From: Bdellovibrionota bacterium
GTDB lineage: Bacteria; Bdellovibrionota_C; UBA2361; JAFLCA01
Length of the DNA stretch: 64,000 nucleotides
Assembly: GCA_041907145.1 (NCBI GenBank)
Contig: JAYRHW010000132.1
Coordinates: 431 to 64,430 of the forward strand
Reading direction: 5' to 3'
Positions 419-9,289 of this stretch are shown here, piece by piece (the first letter of the stretch is position 1; the number at the start of each line of letters is the position of its first letter). Under the pieces are notes generated by a model. It did not search any database. It saw only the letters and a program-made list of their open reading frames with translations, and had not been told where the DNA came from. Made by a program: the position numbers and the translations under genes.

Positions 419-838
419 ATGAATCAGTCGACTTCGGAATCTTGGATTAGCGTGTGCGGAGAGGCGGCCCCTTTGTTGGCCGCTGATACCCATGCTCGCA
501 TTCAAGATCGCCTTGCGAAACGGCAGTTTCGGCAGGATGAGATTGATTACGTGAAGAGCGCTTCCTGTGCTCCGATTCAGGGCGAATTGCGAGTTAGCGA
601 GTCCGAGCTGAACATCCTACGCAGGCTCTGCCAGGCTTGGGATATCGAGCTCCGTCCCGCCAAGATTACATCCCATCGTCCCTTGATCGGTCCGGTTATT
701 GTTGGGGTGAAGCGGCTCCTGTTTCCTTTGGTTCAGGTCTTCCTCAAGGACTTAGTCCGCCAGCAGCGTGATTTTAACTCCTCTGCTATTGCTCTTATGG
801 GCACATTGCTTTCTGAGCGCGACAAGCCAAAAAAATAG
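419..838 (+). CDS. Hypothetical protein, first gene of the T3SS-like operon
   Basis: 139-aa ORF, same strand and tightly spaced with downstream export-gate genes. No motif recognised. Confidence 0.3.
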   Translation: MNQSTSESWISVCGEAAPLLAADTHARIQDRLAKRQFRQDEIDYVKSASCAPIQGELRVSESELNILRRLCQAWDIELRPAKITSHRPLIGPVIVGVKRLLFPLVQVFLKDLVRQQRDFNSSAIALMGTLLSERDKPKK

Positions 839-867
839 TCCATCGAGTAGGCAACTTTTCTCGCCCA

Positions 868-1230
868 ATGCCGAATAATGCGCATCCCTCAGGAGATGCA
901 GCTATGTTGGCAATGCGAGCCCCCATTCTTACGAACATTCCTCAGCCGCTTCCAGCGCAGTTGGCTGCCCCGGAGAAAGCTCAGGCACTGTCGTTTGCTG
1001 ATGTTCTGGCTGAGAAGCTTTCAGGTTTAGAGTCCATGGTCGGGCTGCGCTCCTATGCCGATCTGGCCGCGCTGCGGCGGAAAGTCCTTACAGCAAAGTC
1101 GGTATCGCCTGGGGACCTCATTCTCTATCAGGTCAAGGCTTCCGAGTTTGGTCTCGGCGTGGAGCTCGTATCGAAGGTTGCAGAGTCGATGGCCACGACC
1201 GTGCGTAAATTTCAAAGCAATCAAGGGTAG
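868..1230 (+). CDS. Hypothetical protein in the T3SS-like operon
   Basis: 120-aa ORF, 30 nt after the previous gene and 6 nt before the next. No motif recognised. Confidence 0.3.
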   Translation: MPNNAHPSGDAAMLAMRAPILTNIPQPLPAQLAAPEKAQALSFADVLAEKLSGLESMVGLRSYADLAALRRKVLTAKSVSPGDLILYQVKASEFGLGVELVSKVAESMATTVRKFQSNQG

Positions 1231-1236
1231 GCTGCG

Positions 1237-7500: not shown

Positions 7501-7744
7501 AGTTCTTGTCATTACAACGAAGCCGCAGGATGCCGCGGCAGCATTTTCCGACCTTCAGGAGGTGGCAATCGTTGGCGAGCCGGTGAGTCTATGGTCCGTG
7601 CAGGCTGCCATCAAGCGCCTCGTTCATGGGAAGCAGGCTGGTTCCGGATTGGTCCGCAGTGTTCAGGTCGAGGGAAGAGGAAGCGACGCGCGCAAGGAGC
7701 TTGCGCCGGTGCGAGACCCATCCCGGAATCGAGAGACGCTATGA
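4535..7744 (+). CDS. Multi-domain hybrid sensor histidine kinase (GAF/PAS/GAF/GAF-HisKA-HATPase_c plus C-terminal receiver-like domain), encoded inside the split sctU
   Basis: 1069 aa. H-box GVAHNFNNMLQAVMGQASL. ATP-binding G-boxes DNGAGMD and GLGLSSAYSIIKGHEGSITVSS. Central PAS-like and GAF-like segments. C-terminal ~130 aa resembles a receiver (LVLEDQ, VLVITT), but the conserved Lys is not evident. Starts 4 nt after the sctU N-part stop. Its TGA overlaps the ATG of the next gene (ATGA). Confidence 0.8.
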   Translation: MAARNCKDVIDDLRRSLSAVEAPQQLADTLAEQLSDSFGKAIIHVVLSMSSDRIEAWHGIPPNVTAQHSLRVDGDQARLGALAVPFPVFVSDPRRARLDPELARYIDRIGARSYAAVALYRSGRLSGWIECWYQLEHRTWTREDSALLQQCADVAGLALEGRIAPELPAAESPNPQLVAEIDDLKARYERIIAYGNLIMVRTNPEFELVDVRGDTMSVLGVSAETLLNDRTVWSRFVHSPDFRALNRKVRRMRDRPEELNEEIRVLNQQSQQVRWLLLRSVPLFNAGGEFLGWEGFGLDITDRREAREELLGQSKRVEALYEVARALQVNLDPALVTLRGLRALITATSSDCGFTCFYDPEQKALELVSSEGLSPHYVEDFSRLLGGPTLVRLAVDRKEGLLSNNIQRDPRAAVDIARREGLKSTIIMPLMLKDEVQGAIVLFCRKANRYSEADFDLVSAAASQICLAVRQAESYLAEKRQVSALGVLYRLSHELSKQMTPREIAEHAFPIIQSELSCKRMWLGVLNEQGTLLLGQAGTGPGVRRPLIDLQIEIGEQNDFLSQALSRKQPVIVRPAQQQECERLQRLTQRLNLGMFVIVPLVSLGQTVGILLVEPTLPSGFMIQRKLSLLSSMGAEIATVILARRFESKLADAEKMRMAGLLASGVAHNFNNMLQAVMGQASLIEMQLGKDSPLVGSARMIIEAAGKGAGLIKQLLSFALPGAESRTVISPQELFAESGELYRSILGSSIVLDVRIDDGLPEVHADYSKMQQVITNLLMNAKEAIGDRRDGLVKLTARAVRLASGEVDPELAPGSYLRIDVSDNGAGMDAERQSRCFEPFFTTKNVDVRTGLGFEGSGLGLSSAYSIIKGHEGSITVSSTLGEGTNFSIYLPAYQASATKDAEVPAATAAGGILARQAFVFGDALQRNFALISTLESFGIRVVPCSSSESFFQQAARDSWTMLVLEDQFGAESSAPLVHEVRAKFPDVRVLVITTKPQDAAAAFSDLQEVAIVGEPVSLWSVQAAIKRLVHGKQAGSGLVRSVQVEGRGSDARKELAPVRDPSRNRETL

Positions 7745-8064
7745 GGAGCCTTCGACAGACAATGTCCGGCGGGACAATTCCCGGCCGATGCGCGCCGGAT
7801 CGGAATTCAGCAAACGTCTTCAAGTCGGCCGTGGGATTGGCATATTCTCCGGACGGCGGGCAATCCCCGCATGTGGCTATCAAGGGATCCCTGATGGGGG
7901 CTGATGAAATTGTGCGCCTTGCTCGTCGCTTTGGCGTGCCCATTGTCGAGCAGCGGGGCCTCTGCACGGCACTTGCTCGTCTTGAGCTCGATGCGCATAT
8001 TCCTCCCAGCCTCTTCGAGGCTGTAGCGATTATTCTCGCGCGCCTTCAGCGGAAAGGTAGCTAG
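7741..8064 (+). CDS. Stand-alone SctU/FlhB C-terminal (CC) domain protein, equivalent to the post-NPTH fragment
   Basis: SPHVAIKGSLMGADEIVRLARRFGVPIVEQRGLCTALARLELDAHIPPSLFEAVAIILARL aligns with FlhB PTHYAVAL...APKVVAKGAGLVALRIRE..VPVLEAPPLARALY..EIGQQIP.QLYAAVAEVLAWV. I place the start at ATG 7741, overlapping the kinase stop; the listed ORF 7591 is only the upstream open frame. Confidence 0.65.
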   Translation: MRSLRQTMSGGTIPGRCAPDRNSANVFKSAVGLAYSPDGGQSPHVAIKGSLMGADEIVRLARRFGVPIVEQRGLCTALARLELDAHIPPSLFEAVAIILARLQRKGS

Positions 8065-8224
8065 CTGAAGCTGAATAAAACACTTCTGTACGCCCACTGT
8101 GCACCCTTGCTCGCAGTCAGTTTGTATGGGATTTTAGTAACGCAAGGGCGCCGACGAATTAGCAGTACCTCTCTCGCTATGGAACTAAAACGTCGATCGA
8201 GCGGCTCATTTTTTCGATGATTCG

Positions 8225-9289
8225 ATGGCTAAATTCCTGCGCATAGATCTTACCAAGCCCGACGGCGCGGTGCCGATCGGAAAGATTGAGTCCGGTGAAG
8301 CCTTCATTGGCAGAGAGCCAGGTACTGCCACCGGCATCACCGTCGATAATACTGCGATATCTCGTCAGCACGGGTTGTTCGTACGAGGGCGGAATTGCTG
8401 GGTCTTTCGCGATCTGGGATCGACGAACGGTTCTTGGCTCAATGGCAAGCCGCTCAAGGCCGGTCAGTGGAAGATTGTCAGATCGGGCGATGTCTTGCAG
8501 CTTGCCGATTCGGCGCTGAATCTGGTCGAGGAGCGCGGACCGGGATTTGCCGCCCCCGGTAGTACTTCCAATGTCGGAGGGCGCGCGCTCATCGTCTTTT
8601 CAGGTGGAAATTTTCAAGACGAGTATCCCATTCCAGAGTATGGCAGGGCATTGGTCGTTGGCGGATCGCGCAGCGATTTGCCCTTAGATGGAGACCTCGC
8701 GGAGCTTCCGACGTTGGTAGTTGAGCGGCGAGGGGAGGGTATTTGCGCGTTTGGGCTTGCAAAGGATCAAAAGGTTTACATTAACGAGAATGAGATGAAT
8801 GACGTGGTCCCGCTTAAGGACGGCGACGACATTCAGGTGGGGCAGTACTCGATTTTGTACAGCGACCCCACTGGACAGCGAGCAGGAGCTGCGCAGCAGC
8901 CCCCGCTGTTCGCCGGAGAGCGACCGTCAGCTGGCGCCTCAGTGGGGCCGGTGGAGCAGACCACTCGTCTTTCGGGCGTCCGCGGGTGGGCTAACACTGA
9001 AGGTGCTGCCCCAAGCGACGGCATGCTCACAGGAGCAAAGACTCAGCCGCGATTGAATTTTGGCCAGCAGGATTATGCGGACCCCAATGCTGAGGAGACG
9101 ATTGCGATCGATCCCAACGACAGTCGCCTTAGGGGATTGGGTTATGATCGTCATCCCTCGACTCGATACGTTGAGGAGGGCAGGCAGGGGGTCTCGCTCG
9201 AGGCGGTGGAGGATAAAGTCATCCTCATTATCGGCTTCGTGCTTCTCCTGGCCCTCCTGGGGCTCGTTCTCTGGTGGGTATTTGCCTAG
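8225..9289 (+). CDS. Dual FHA-domain protein with C-terminal transmembrane anchor
   Basis: Two FHA-like modules: FIGREPG...ISRQHGLFV...GSTNGSWLNGKPL...GDVLQL, and a second LVVGGSRSDLPLDGD...VYINENEMN...GDDIQVG. C-terminal hydrophobic helix VILIIGFVLLLALLGLVLWWVFA at the extreme end. Confidence 0.6.
   Translation: MAKFLRIDLTKPDGAVPIGKIESGEAFIGREPGTATGITVDNTAISRQHGLFVRGRNCWVFRDLGSTNGSWLNGKPLKAGQWKIVRSGDVLQLADSALNLVEERGPGFAAPGSTSNVGGRALIVFSGGNFQDEYPIPEYGRALVVGGSRSDLPLDGDLAELPTLVVERRGEGICAFGLAKDQKVYINENEMNDVVPLKDGDDIQVGQYSILYSDPTGQRAGAAQQPPLFAGERPSAGASVGPVEQTTRLSGVRGWANTEGAAPSDGMLTGAKTQPRLNFGQQDYADPNAEETIAIDPNDSRLRGLGYDRHPSTRYVEEGRQGVSLEAVEDKVILIIGFVLLLALLGLVLWWVFA

Follow-up and report, generated by a model that had tools for sequence, protein, structure and literature searches.

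Our results revealed that the 64-kb window (the whole stretch of DNA analysed here) carries a real, widely conserved and stripped-down relative of the type III export machine. This module is a tight operon (868-9289) with all of its genes on the + strand, encoding in this order an SctI-like protein, an SctP/FliK-like protein, SctR, SctS, SctT, the N-terminal part of SctU (SctU-N), a sensor histidine kinase, the C-terminal part of SctU (SctU-C) and an FHA protein. Between 868 and 8064 successive genes are spaced by -4 to +9 nt, with the stop of the SctP/FliK-like gene overlapping the start of sctR, and the FHA gene is separated from SctU-C by 160 nt. Every gene listed in an earlier note on this DNA was found at its coordinates and in the order given there. 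We read the operon as a functional, vertically inherited, reduced type III module (gate plus specificity switch) of an uncultured Bdellovibrionota-related lineage, and we give this reading about an even chance of being right.

The gene order is common to 11 further loci (L002, L008, L009, L026, L032, L034, L070-L073 and one JGI contig). They come from metagenomes and from MAGs of uncultured Bdellovibrionota, Oligoflexia and "Deltaproteobacteria", and their flanks vary. When relatives were compared protein by protein, the module proteins were 24-70% identical, versus 48-81% for the adjacent LPS genes. The GC and GC3 of the operon equal the host values.

In this family sctU is split, and the split coincides exactly with the NPTH autocleavage point of FlhB/SctU. 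SctU-N (263 aa, 3739-4530, +) covers positions 3-256 of the 335 in the Bac_export_2 profile and SctU-C (107 aa, 7741-8064, +) covers positions 260-333 (49.9 bits), which bears out the earlier proposal of a divided sctU with a kinase gene inside. SctU-N comprises the membrane domain with its conserved FlhB-type N-terminus, the linker and the beta-strand preceding the autocleavage site, and its terminus reads SKVIIVERAEQRE before the stop. The profile match ends at position 256-257, equivalent to residue 269 of FlhB and 257 of SpaS, that is, the N of NPTH. Aligned to E. coli FlhB, SctU-N stops 2-12 residues past the VIVN strand, and SctU-C begins at the residue after NPTH (the H-YSVALQY position). 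NPTH is replaced by NVFK in SctU-C, while the motifs AP..V..KG and IP..LY.AVA are conserved. Although the reading frame has an alternative start at 7591, the true start of SctU-C is most likely ATG 7741, which overlaps the kinase stop as ATGA, an arrangement also present in L008 and L009. The truncation of SctU-N is identical in the 11 loci with DNA aligned. Moreover, 158 SctU-N clusters (50% identity level) reach E<=1e-30, and among the representatives of the best 150, all 150 are 172-290 aa long and none contains NP[TSE]H.

Judged by profile and alignment, SctU-C corresponds to the C-terminal fragment of FlhB/SctU after cleavage (the cleaved C-terminal domain, CCD) and has a gene of its own. 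In flagella, the cleaved CCD of FlhB is a dock for early substrates that is physically removed at switching, which explains the existence of autocleavage (PMC13344023); SctU-C would be the counterpart of this removable early-mode subunit of Salmonella. The module thus has the membrane domain, linker and CCD fold in common with FlhB/SctU, and its two polypeptides correspond to the two autocleavage products. However, FlhB/SctU separates autocatalytically whereas here the separation is genetic, the NPTH motif is missing from all members, and the halves are parted by a kinase gene of 2.3-3.2 kb. Since they are encoded apart, the cell can produce the CCD, and renew it, without making the membrane part. 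The best NCBIfam match of SctU-C is TIGR00789 flhB_rel, likewise a free-standing homologue (~90-130 aa) of the FlhB C-terminal domain, at 56.4 bits, below the family cut-off of 117. In contrast to stand-alone flhB_rel proteins, SctU-C shares its operon with a matching truncated SctU-N, and is therefore clearly the missing half and not an extra paralogue. We found no description of a split sctU with a nested kinase in the literature searched.

A split gene in an operon that lacks core components could also mark a decaying T3SS, with sctU a pseudogene broken by insertion of the kinase gene, and this draft assembly does have broken genes (accA, split at ~35114-35124, and a helicase, split at 47519). 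Yet the identical split, intact frames, translational coupling and motifs are kept across five aligned lineages in which the SctU-N proteins are 24-46% identical, and the split is maintained in ~150 clusters at 50% identity. In addition, an identical copy of the R-S-T region (L001) is present in an independent read set, and frameshifts or stops in R, S and T across most family members were not seen. Decay is effectively refuted by this conservation across divergent lineages, and we regard it as scarcely credible. The description "degenerate" used previously is contradicted by an architecture and catalytic motifs strictly kept in 12 loci and ~150 protein clusters.

The kinase nested in sctU (1069 aa, 4535-7744, +) is cytoplasmic and consists of GAF, PAS, GAF, GAF, DHp and CA domains followed by a degenerate receiver-like tail. 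It matches Pfam GAF, GAF_2, PAS_4 and HATPase_c, and residues 644-1032 are covered by PRK13557- and VirA-like NCBIfam models. The gene is 32-64% identical across loci. The H-box AHNFNN, the G1 box DNGxGM and the G2 box GxGLGL are intact in 10/10 loci, and the tail, which is weak (E 0.004-0.008), is missing from three of the ten. The kinase and SctU-C genes overlap in eight of ten loci. These motifs suggest that the kinase is catalytically competent, and the overlap points to translational coupling with sctU-C. No partner response regulator was invariably linked to the module in the related loci. Purely from gene position, we infer that the kinase might associate physically with the gate.

The gate subunits are SctR (FliP family, 223 aa, 2067-2738, +), SctS (FliQ family, 86 aa, 2745-3005, +) and SctT (FliR family, 239 aa, 3011-3730, +). 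SctR matches Pfam FliP (166.6 bits) and passes the non-flagellar (NF) T3SS model NF009438 EscR/YscR (181.2, cut-off 179), versus 143.9 for fliP TIGR01103 (cut-off 217). All four SctR members compared scored above the cut-off with the NF-T3SS model (181-198) and below 217 with the FliP model (123-170). A profile search of the PDB favoured SpaP (178 and 173) over FliP (151-165), and the gate (gasket/pore) motifs G-M-x-M..P..ISLPLKLLLFV..DGW are invariant within the family. SctS (Pfam Bac_export_3, 53.9 bits) scores 45.1 with the SctS model vs 37.3 with FliQ, while SctT (Pfam Bac_export_1, 60.9 bits) is ambiguous (FliR 49.4 vs SctT 47.3); across R, S and U, the NF-type models of NCBIfam score above their flagellar counterparts. 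SctR and SctS thus lean non-flagellar by sequence, in agreement with the earlier note: the NF models score higher, SctR has no FliP-type signal-peptide extension and no FliO was found in the window. In the phylogeny proposed as a check, the neighbour-joining tree placed the family on the non-flagellar side, with poor resolution.

Could the module instead be the flagellar export gate of its host (FliE-like, FliK-like, FliP, FliQ, FliR and FlhB), with the flagellar genes dispersed and unusually divergent? Its order recalls the flagellar operons fliK..fliO-P-Q-R-flhB, and L008, the closest relative, encodes a homologue of FliO (Pfam FliO 27.7 bits, above the GA of 22) between its P-like gene and sctR. 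Moreover, the SctU-N profile matched Salmonella FlhB best (111 bits vs 98 for SpaS), and in one relative, L009, a che operon adjoins the module. On the other hand, a FliP would hardly be expected to exceed the NF-T3SS cut-off and fall far below that of FliP in 4/4 members, to lack the signal-peptide extension or to be 33% identical to FliPs that, from three phyla, are 45-62% identical among themselves. The tree, for what its resolution allows, also sets the family apart, and no FliF, FliG, FlhA, rod or hook genes were present in 240 kb of family loci. We therefore consider a flagellar gate improbable.

Two further proteins tie the operon to type III secretion. The 120-aa protein (868-1230, +), one of two ORFs that the earlier note had left as unknown, has matches to Pfam T3SS_basalb_I (20.4 bits, E 7e-4) and to TIGR02497 (18.4 bits) that fall short of the respective cut-offs. 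This protein and six other family members share the same weak top match to SctI (15-26 bits, GA 32.4), and the C-terminal ~60 aa are 38-56% identical between loci. From these sub-threshold matches the protein appears SctI-like (inner-rod-like), so that one basal-body/rod-type gene would be present; one family member also touches FliE, a point for the flagellar gate. The 277-aa protein (1237-2070, +) has no significant Pfam match in the window. An N-terminal coiled coil is joined by a disordered linker to an alpha/beta domain of ~85 aa at the C-terminus, and conservation is confined to this domain. Pfam Flg_hook, the FliK C-terminus, matched two of seven members (best E 0.0035), again as a flagellar gate would have it. 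In the AlphaFold model (mean pLDDT 59), residues 191-269 have pLDDT 65-75, and its two best Foldseek matches among 350,542 PDB chains were 5cuk, the SS (T3S4) domain of PscP (prob 0.97, TM 0.53, E 0.11), and 2rrl, the C-terminal domain of FliK. Although these matches are sub-threshold, the modelled domain resembles the T3S4 substrate-specificity-switch domain. The operon would thus encode a T3S4-like partner beside the gate, as for FlhB/SctU and its FliK/SctP ruler, and the claim that basal-body genes were absent overlooks both the SctI-like gene and this switch protein. In Xanthomonas, SctI (HrpB2), the T3S4 protein (HpaC) and HrcU-C are reported to interact (PMC3040844).

The last gene (8225-9289, +) encodes a 354-aa tail-anchored tandem-FHA protein. 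The first FHA domain has the full phosphothreonine-binding signature and the second is FHA-like but degenerate; a disordered linker then leads to a TM helix at 332-350. The residues GR, SxxH and TNG are each conserved in 9/10 loci, the TM helix stops 4-9 residues short of the C-terminus in all ten, and the gene is missing from one relative (JGI 3300059473). The tandem arrangement recalls CdsD of Chlamydia. SctD/YscD/PrgH also have an N-terminal FHA-type cytoplasmic domain and a place beside export-gate genes, and Yop-YscD_cpl just passes its cut-off (33.9 vs 33.2; Pfam FHA 57.7 bits). However, because its sole TM helix ends 4 residues from the C-terminus, the protein has no periplasmic domain, and lacking the ring-building domains of SctD it cannot form an SctD ring. 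Its canonical phosphothreonine-binding residues fit the GarA/OdhI type better than SctD, and its best PDB sequence matches were the phosphothreonine-binding domains of GarA, OdhI and Rv0020c. The protein also recalls flagellar Fluke (Flk), which in Salmonella holds the apparatus in early mode together with FlhB-CCD (PMC13344023): both are tail-anchored, and the FHA gene follows the CCD gene here. This likeness, which would favour a flagellar gate, is limited to topology and position, since Flk has no FHA domain and homology is not detectable (hhalign probability 2.7%).

On either side of the operon the neighbours are less constant. A 139-aa protein (419-838, +) has no Pfam or NCBIfam match, and its single-sequence AlphaFold model is unusable (pLDDT 44). 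By tblastn, seven of nine related loci tested have a homologue (35-64% identity) close to the module, on the opposite strand in L071 and L072 and with two unrelated genes in between in L009; it is a conserved neighbour and no obligate operon member. Downstream, a 469-aa protein (9325-10734, -) has no Pfam match at E<=0.001 and comprises a receiver-like domain, a PAS domain and a further C-terminal part, with profile matches to the receiver domains of PleD and FrzS (E 7e-8) and the PAS domain of DcuS. Its homologues adjoin the module in 6/9 loci tested, making it a variable neighbour in convergent orientation that may be a signalling partner.

In support of the earlier observation that SctV, SctN, SctJ, SctC and SctQ are absent nearby, Pfam scans of the rest of the window (~40 further ORFs, 9.3-64 kb) found no T3SS or flagellar genes. 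Similarly, searching the window by tblastn, with E. coli FlhA and the proteins SctC, D, J, K, L, Q, V and N from a complete system as queries, yielded no match at E<0.1, and none of the 11 related loci has SctV, SctN, SctJ/FliF, SctC (secretin) or SctQ within 10 kb. As only ~400 nt separate the operon from the window edge, and the source contig adds only 907 nt to the window, the missing genes might simply lie upstream. Nevertheless, the window opens with the C-terminal end of a Peripla_BP_2 binding protein gene, the same gene that lies ahead of the module in L008, L032 and L034. In L032 and L034, as in six further relatives, all 10 kb upstream contain nothing but housekeeping genes. Depending on the relative, this upstream region carries lepA, a che operon, PAP2, ParA/SecG or murC/murB, and in no case a T3SS gene. 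An artefact of the window, named in advance as what would overturn the orphan status, is refuted for the relatives, and we give it almost no weight.

Without engine genes at the loci or in the 55 kb downstream, a working T3SS requires additional components. T3SS genes are normally clustered, so the fact that 12/12 loci have no other T3SS components in cis could indicate a system that is autonomous or repurposed and works without SctV, ATPase and rings. It would then be a new kind of kinase- and FHA-gated inner-membrane conduit, or a membrane scaffold in which signalling replaces secretion. In line with this, the invariant extra gene encodes a sensor kinase and no structural part, and the FHA protein is devoid of the periplasmic ring domains of SctD, whether through loss or from the outset. 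We find the two forms together unlikely, though the strongest of the alternatives. To our knowledge, SctV/FlhA is indispensable for export in every studied T3SS, and the retained gate motifs, rod-like protein and ruler/switch-like protein are expected of a system still secreting and switching.

Scattered loci are also known: Chlamydiales distribute their NF-T3SS core genes over several loci, one with R, S and T (PMC3459982), although there all core genes are demonstrably in the genome, whereas our module is known from its loci alone. The closest parallel in a predatory "delta" lineage is the "needle-less" NF-T3SS of Myxococcales (Myxo short and long loci, Abby & Rocha 2012; T3SS* of Myxococcus xanthus), argued to be functional from its conservation over long evolutionary distances (PMC3459982). 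Like our module, it has a non-flagellar-type export apparatus and an SctI-type rod gene and lacks secretin, needle, tip and translocon genes. However, SctV, SctJ and the ATPase SctN are all encoded in the Myxo loci, with SctD as well in the long one (PMC3459982), and our module has none of these in cis; instead of SctD it has the tail-anchored FHA protein, and no split sctU or nested kinase is mentioned for the Myxo loci in the literature searched.

Taken as a reduced but functional type III module, the operon suggests the following model. SctR, SctS, SctT and SctU-N would assemble into the export gate of the inner membrane, whose composition in known systems is R5S4T1U1. The export engine (SctV and ATPase) and any rings would most probably come from elsewhere in the genome. 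SctU-C would dock non-covalently on the last beta-strand of SctU-N, reconstituting FlhB/SctU as it is after autocleavage; with SctU-C in its own gene, NPTH would no longer be needed and was lost. The SctI-like protein would be the expected early substrate, and the SctP/FliK-like protein the expected switch ruler, its T3S4-like domain acting on SctU-C. The supply of this removable "early-mode" subunit would be tied to a multi-GAF/PAS sensor histidine kinase, and on the cytoplasmic side of the gate the tail-anchored FHA protein would serve as a phosphothreonine reader.

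Ten ORFs lie on the plus strand between positions 419 and 9289 of the window, and most of them could be named with Pfam and NCBIfam. Homologues of SctR, SctS, SctT and SctU are all present and adjacent by Pfam: SctR at 2067-2738 (FliP family, Pfam FliP 166.6 bits), SctS at 2745-3005 (Pfam Bac_export_3 53.9), SctT at 3011-3730 (Pfam Bac_export_1 60.9) and SctU in two pieces, of which SctU-N (3739-4530; Bac_export_2 128.5) covers the first ~256 profile positions of SctU/FlhB and SctU-C (7741-8064, 107 aa; Bac_export_2 49.9) the last ~75. The gene for a soluble GAF-PAS-GAF histidine kinase of 1069 aa (4535-7744) separates the two pieces, and the gene for an FHA protein (8225-9289) comes last; this succession of sctR, sctS, sctT, split sctU with embedded kinase and FHA gene is the one that the earlier note had described, and all of it was found by Pfam and NCBIfam at 2067-9289. 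Upstream, that note had placed two unknown ORFs and an SctO/P-like gene, which held in part. Neither 419-838 (139 aa) nor 1237-2070 gave a significant family match in Pfam or NCBIfam, and the latter is best read as SctP/FliK-type, but 868-1230 has a weak yet specific match to the inner-rod family SctI. The operon from this SctI-like gene to the FHA gene (868-9289) is referred to here as the module. Its genes are spaced by -4 to +9 nt from 868 to 8064, and the TGA stop of the kinase gene (7742-7744) overlaps the ATG at 7741, which was taken as the start of SctU-C because the homologous genes of relatives start at the equivalent ATG. The GC and GC3 of the operon are the same as those of the remainder of the window, and promoter and terminator scans gave sites no more numerous than in shuffled sequence.

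SctU-N and SctU-C are the counterparts of the polypeptides that autocleavage yields from FlhB/SctU (membrane domain with CN, and the CC domain or CCD, respectively), because their ends align at the NPTH site. When E. coli FlhB is taken as the reference, each SctU-N is seen to stop 2-12 residues past the strand matching ..DVIVN-NPTH, and each SctU-C to resume at the residue matching H-YSVALQY; the terminal strand of SctU-N reads KVIVVE. The NPTH autocleavage motif itself is gone from the window: SctU-N stops short of it, closing with E-R-A-E..stop, and SctU-C carries N-V-F-K at that position. SctR5S4T1 with one SctU forms the export gate, and the features of both are retained here, since the gasket and pore motifs of SctR (G-M-x-M, ISLPLKLLLFV, DGW) are invariant in the family and SctU-N has kept the FlhB-type N-terminus. 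The CCD motifs AP.V..KG and IP..LY.AVA are conserved in SctU-C. In Salmonella FlhB the early-substrate pocket residues are reported to be A286, P287, A341 and L344 (PMC13344023), and, judging by position, the conserved SctU-C motifs would contain them. Stand-alone FlhB-C-like proteins make up an uncharacterised NCBIfam family, TIGR00789.

Unusual SctU proteins were also seen in complete systems. [quoted passage not shown] SctV is encoded next, and the locus showed no SctU-C-like ORF. Viewed alongside PMC13344023, this system could be locked in the 'late' mode. A Rubrivivax MAG (L025 9986-11017) has a full-length NF-T3SS SctU of 343 aa with HHTD in place of NPTH, which is apparently non-cleaving, within an otherwise canonical cluster.

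The window assembly contains broken genes, and it is for this reason that the recurrence of the sctU split in relatives matters. The essential accA occupies two ORFs, 34491-35114 (ending ..GEGGSGGA) and 35124-35477, and this is a frameshift or a draft-assembly error. A Ski2/HelY-like helicase is present as two abutting ORFs, of which 46707-47519 carries the DEAD domain and 47519-48964 carries Helicase_C and DSHCT; either the assembly is broken here a second time, or the gene is truly split.

Protein searches, a genome-collection scan (which gave three family loci plus canonical systems) and exact-protein look-ups recovered eleven further loci. The sources are JGI metagenomes (L002-L007), a MAG labelled 'Deltaproteobacteria' UWPOB_DELTA1 (L008, the closest relative), a Bdellovibrionota MAG from Lake Mendota (L009), an Oligoflexia MAG (L026, the most divergent), a 1.16-Mb contig (L032), a MAG labelled Ca. 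Dadabacteria (L034), NCBI and JGI sequences (L070-L072), a Bdellovibrionales MAG (L073) and an 85-kb JGI contig from sample 3300059473. Assemblies with the module include GCA_003696425.1, GCA_030431715.1 and GCA_020434565.1, the MAGs to which JAFLCA010000012, JBIKUD010000014 and DAOLCO010000041 belong, and the genome of the 1.16-Mb contig, k127_9223768 (ERZ22682847); besides Lake Mendota, EBPR reactors are a habitat of relatives. All of the relatives have the same gene order (SctI-like, P-like, R, S, T, U-N, kinase, U-C), and in all but one the FHA gene then continues the module. The sensor histidine kinase gene is always nested between the sctU halves and usually translationally coupled to the downstream half (it overlaps sctU-C in 8/10 loci), and a phosphothreonine-reading, tail-anchored protein is usually encoded next. 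The flanks vary and include lepA, a cheAWYBRX operon, ParA/SecG, PAP2, murC/murB, nadC and LPS heptosyltransferases. Compared protein by protein across relatives, the module proteins are 24-70% identical, versus 48-81% for the neighbouring LPS genes.

The split also extends well beyond these loci. An exhaustive HMM search with a two-sequence SctU-N alignment against 1.84 billion cluster representatives gave 158 matches at E<=1e-30; the best 150 of these 158 are all 172-290 aa long (median 259, when a normal SctU has ~350 aa), and NP[TSE]H is absent from all of those 150. An SctR profile search returned more than 120 clusters at 254-354 bits, with EscR/YscR or FliP as source names, and a metagenome scan with a five-sequence SctU-N alignment, keyed on the universal DDEGD pattern, had only distant canonical FlhB/SctU among the matches listed. 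The degenerate system that the earlier note had considered possible is thus at odds with one gene order in 11 further loci and with a uniformly short SctU-N in the best 150 of 158 representatives. The module is conserved, and is neither an artefact nor a wreck; it appears to be old, vertically inherited and under constraint. A decaying remnant, as an explanation of the split and of the missing parts, is very improbable, given that the split recurs in relatives and the module seems constrained.

As regards the neighbourhood, an LPS-core block (11031-15796: epimerase, two GT9 heptosyltransferases, a Kdo/WaaP-type kinase and a PfkB sugar kinase) is present in the window, and in most relatives such a block lies directly beside the module (L002, L008, L009, L070-L072); a ParA/MipZ-like gene and secG are often found a few kb upstream of the module in relatives. 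The adjacency of module and LPS core is conserved chromosomal synteny, and a functional link is possible. In the Lake Mendota locus, a complete chemotaxis operon (CheA, CheW, CheY, CheB, CheR, CheX; L009 57-5151) lies directly 5' of the homologue of the 139-aa gene and the module, which suggests that at least this host is motile. The 139-aa protein (419-838) is a frequent neighbour, on the opposite strand or distant in some loci, and its single-sequence structure model (pLDDT 44) is too poor to use. Three large ORFs of the window have no Pfam match at E<=0.001: 20297-22009 (-, 570 aa), 25995-27671 (+, 558 aa) and 48972-51404 (-, 810 aa).

Apart from the gate, switch and rod-like genes, the locus is devoid of T3SS genes. 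Pfam scans assigned the ~40 further ORFs at 9.3-64 kb to LPS-core, housekeeping and signalling functions; among the scanned window ORFs there was no match to FHIPEP (SctV), ATP-synt_ab, FliH or FliMN_C (SctN/SctL/SctQ), or YscJ_FliF or Secretin (SctJ/SctC). In tblastn (E<0.1), the SctC, D, J, K, L, Q, V and N proteins of the complete Paraburkholderia injectisome plus E. coli FlhA gave zero matches in the window and none across 240 kb of family loci, which for SctV and for SctN/SctL/SctQ is a result at the locus level only. In a control on other loci, these probes detected SctV in 29, SctN in 17, SctJ in 18 and SctC in 15. Neither SctV/FlhA nor an ATPase is encoded within 10 kb of the module in any of the 11 related loci, nor in the 64-kb window, and no linked FlhA, FliF/G, rod, hook or motor gene was seen in the window or in any related locus. 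The absence of SctV, SctN, SctJ, SctC and SctQ nearby, claimed before from inspection, was therefore borne out by Pfam scans and tblastn, and at the level of the locus no further T3SS genes exist.

The same note had pointed out that the missing genes might lie just upstream, making the orphan status an artefact of the window. As the source contig extends beyond the window by just 907 nt, this question was put to the relatives. The first 360 nt of the window encode the C-terminus of a Peripla_BP_2 binding protein, and the same gene is found in the same place in three relatives; the flanks of the relatives hold no T3SS or flagellar structural gene, which leaves a window artefact hardly credible.

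We considered whether the gate is a divergent flagellar one. Against this, R, S and U all score higher with the NF-type models of NCBIfam than with the flagellar models. SctR scores 181.2 with subfamily NF009438, just above its cutoff of 179, and 159.2 with equivalog TIGR01102, below its cutoff of 208.6; L026, L071 and L034 show the same pattern, so that in four members the NF subfamily model is just above cutoff and fliP far below. Scores with the flagellar equivalogs all fall short of their thresholds: fliP 143.9 (217.45), fliQ 37.3 (88.9), fliR 49.4 (168.6) and flhB 94.5 (349.25). SctR also lacks the signal-peptide extension of FliP, as the profile, from residues 9-13 of the family proteins, aligns to residues 48-100 of FliP chains but to 7-8 of SpaP, and the SctRs of the family are ~33% identical to FliPs and ~36% to NF SctRs, with FliPs from three phyla being 45-62% identical among themselves. 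However, the SctU-N profile scores best on Salmonella FlhB, SctT is ambiguous, and a FliO homologue is present in L008, where an 83-aa ORF with one TM helix (5420-5671) lies between the P-like gene and sctR and matches Pfam FliO at 27.7 bits (GA 22). We know of no FliO in injectisomes. The window has none: the stop of the P-like gene overlaps the start of sctR, and an overlapping 83-aa ORF is not FliO-like. An 84-aa ORF at the FliO position in L034 was rejected as FliO, having neither a Pfam match nor any similarity to the FliO-like ORF of L008; the JGI 3300059473 contig has a 100-aa gene where the FliO-like ORF of L008 sits.

A crude neighbour-joining tree of SctR, one of the two proteins for which the earlier note had called for a phylogeny, put the family on the non-flagellar side, poorly resolved, and its grouping with SPI-1 sequences looks like long-branch attraction. 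What this tree suggests is only that the SctR family does not fall within the FliP clade. The non-flagellar assignment proposed from the sequence alone was thus supported by the R, S and U model scores and by the missing signal-peptide extension, but not by SctU-N, SctT or the FliO of L008. We conclude that the export gate probably represents a separate branch that lies deep in the export-apparatus family and leans to the non-flagellar side, rather than an ordinary flagellar gate, and we hold a divergent flagellar gate to be rather improbable.

The SctI-like and P-like genes precede the gate. The SctI-like protein scores below threshold with both T3SS_basalb_I (20.4 bits, GA 32.4) and TIGR02497 (18.4 bits, cutoff 23.45), and SctI is the consistent sub-threshold top match of the window protein and six other members. 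Specificity is switched in known systems by FliK/SctP/HpaC, a secreted ruler that bears a T3S4 domain and acts on the SctU/FlhB C-terminal domain. The N-terminal part of the 277-aa P-like protein (1237-2070) is a long coiled coil, and its C-terminal domain of ~85 aa is conserved. Two of seven P-like members match Pfam Flg_hook, which represents the C-terminus of FliK (best E 0.0035), the window protein itself being unmatched, and a PDB profile search gave coiled-coil noise only. The structure was predicted from a two-row alignment, as the homologue search found two proteins only (pLDDT 59); the top two PDB matches of the C-terminal domain model (pLDDT 65-75) in Foldseek are the PscP SS/T3S4 domain (5cuk, prob 0.97, E 0.11) and the FliK C-terminal domain (2rrl). 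Because these two weak matches agree, and because of its position just upstream of sctR, the best reading of the P-like protein is a putative SctP/FliK-type ruler/switch protein with a tentative T3S4 domain. A Xanthomonas study reports that an SctI-type rod protein, a T3S4 protein and HrcU-C interact (PMC3040844).

The nested kinase has the phospho-accepting His box and the ATP-binding G1/G2 boxes of a sensor histidine kinase (AHNFNN at residue 668, NLLMNA at 776, DNGAGM at 823, GSGLGL at 856); the H-box, G1 and G2 are present in 10/10 loci and the N-box pattern in 7/10, and an extra receiver-like tail of ~210 aa is found in 7/10 kinases. The FHA protein carries G29-R30, S46-R-Q-H49 and T67-N-G69, with GR, SxxH and NG each in 9/10 loci, plus a second, degenerate FHA-like domain. 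The best PDB matches of its FHA domain are GarA, OdhI and Rv0020c-type domains rather than SctD, and in 10/10 loci the protein ends 4-9 residues past a single TM helix (4 in the window). It is thus predicted to be a tail-anchored cytoplasmic adaptor, not the ring-forming SctD. Homology to Fluke (Flk) was rejected, as hhalign of the family alignment against E. coli Flk gave a probability of 2.7%; the two share only the tail-anchored topology. The window also contains two eukaryotic-type Ser/Thr protein kinase genes (18013-19386 and 36559-38403, the second with C-terminal HEAT repeats), which are candidate sources of phosphothreonine ligands for the FHA protein, and the convergent 469-aa gene next to the module (9325-10734, minus strand) encodes a receiver-PAS protein found in six of nine related loci tested.

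Altogether, the module encodes a gate, a CN-bearing membrane half of SctU, a free CCD, a T3S4-like protein, a rod-like early substrate and, right after the CCD gene, a tail-anchored cytoplasmic protein. The SctU/FlhB C-terminal domain docks early substrates, and by analogy this set would match exactly that of the known switch machinery. A 2026 study found that the cleaved FlhB-CCD and tail-anchored Fluke keep the flagellar apparatus in the early mode, and argued that autocleavage exists so that the CCD can be physically removed (PMC13344023). What follows goes past gene identity, split position and conservation, and is our inference. The module may be a working gate-plus-switch unit in which the CCD is a subunit with a gene of its own, synthesised in coupling with the sensor kinase; with the CCD separate and kinase-coupled, the state of the switch could be reset or tuned by signals, and the FHA adaptor may link the unit to Ser/Thr phosphorylation.

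Export in every studied T3SS needs SctV/FlhA, aided by the ATPase. In this family, both could be encoded elsewhere in the genome, be borrowed from the flagellum, or really be absent; in Chlamydiales, the T3SS is spread over several loci (PMC3459982). We give an even chance to an export engine supplied in trans, and consider it unlikely that the module, with no SctV or ATPase at the locus, is autonomous or repurposed. The nearest described system is the needle-less NF-T3SS of Myxococcales, whose locus encodes SctR, S, T, U and V together with SctN, SctJ and SctI, and lacks both secretin and needle (PMC3459982). The module likewise has no secretin and no needle and has an SctI-like gene, but differs in having no SctV, SctN or SctJ at the locus. 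In the literature searched, which lay largely outside subscription journals, we found no description of an sctU split at the cleavage site across a family, of the nested kinase gene or of this reduced module in Bdellovibrionota/Oligoflexia.

As some members still carry FliO, the module might also be a third, hitherto unrecognised export-apparatus lineage that belongs to neither the flagellar nor the injectisome type and is either basal to the known NF systems or independent of them. It would be a ring-less and needle-less inner-membrane gate with a separately encoded, kinase-coupled, re-loadable SctU-CC, possibly without SctV or ATPase. We regard this as a doubtful reading; if it were true, the normally irreversible early-to-late switch would become signal-controlled and resettable.

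Finally, the family appears to have swapped NPTH autocleavage for a division into two genes at the very same bond, with NPTH lost afterwards, which would make it a natural experiment on the T3SS specificity switch. The split would independently support the proposal that cleavage exists only to make the C-terminal domain a separable, removable subunit (PMC13344023), and the family offers ready-made two-piece SctU proteins for testing the removable-CCD model. The nested kinase and the tail-anchored reader suggest a direct wiring of environmental signals to the switch subunit, an arrangement not known to have been described for T3SS. The host lineage is uncultured, possibly predatory, and stands next to the Myxococcales with their 'needle-less' systems. 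The architecture is surprising and well conserved, and bears directly on the current model of the specificity switch; a gate-plus-switch conserved without SctV, ATPase, rings or needle in cis asks what the minimal functional core of a T3SS is, and in what way evolution put such machines together or took them apart.
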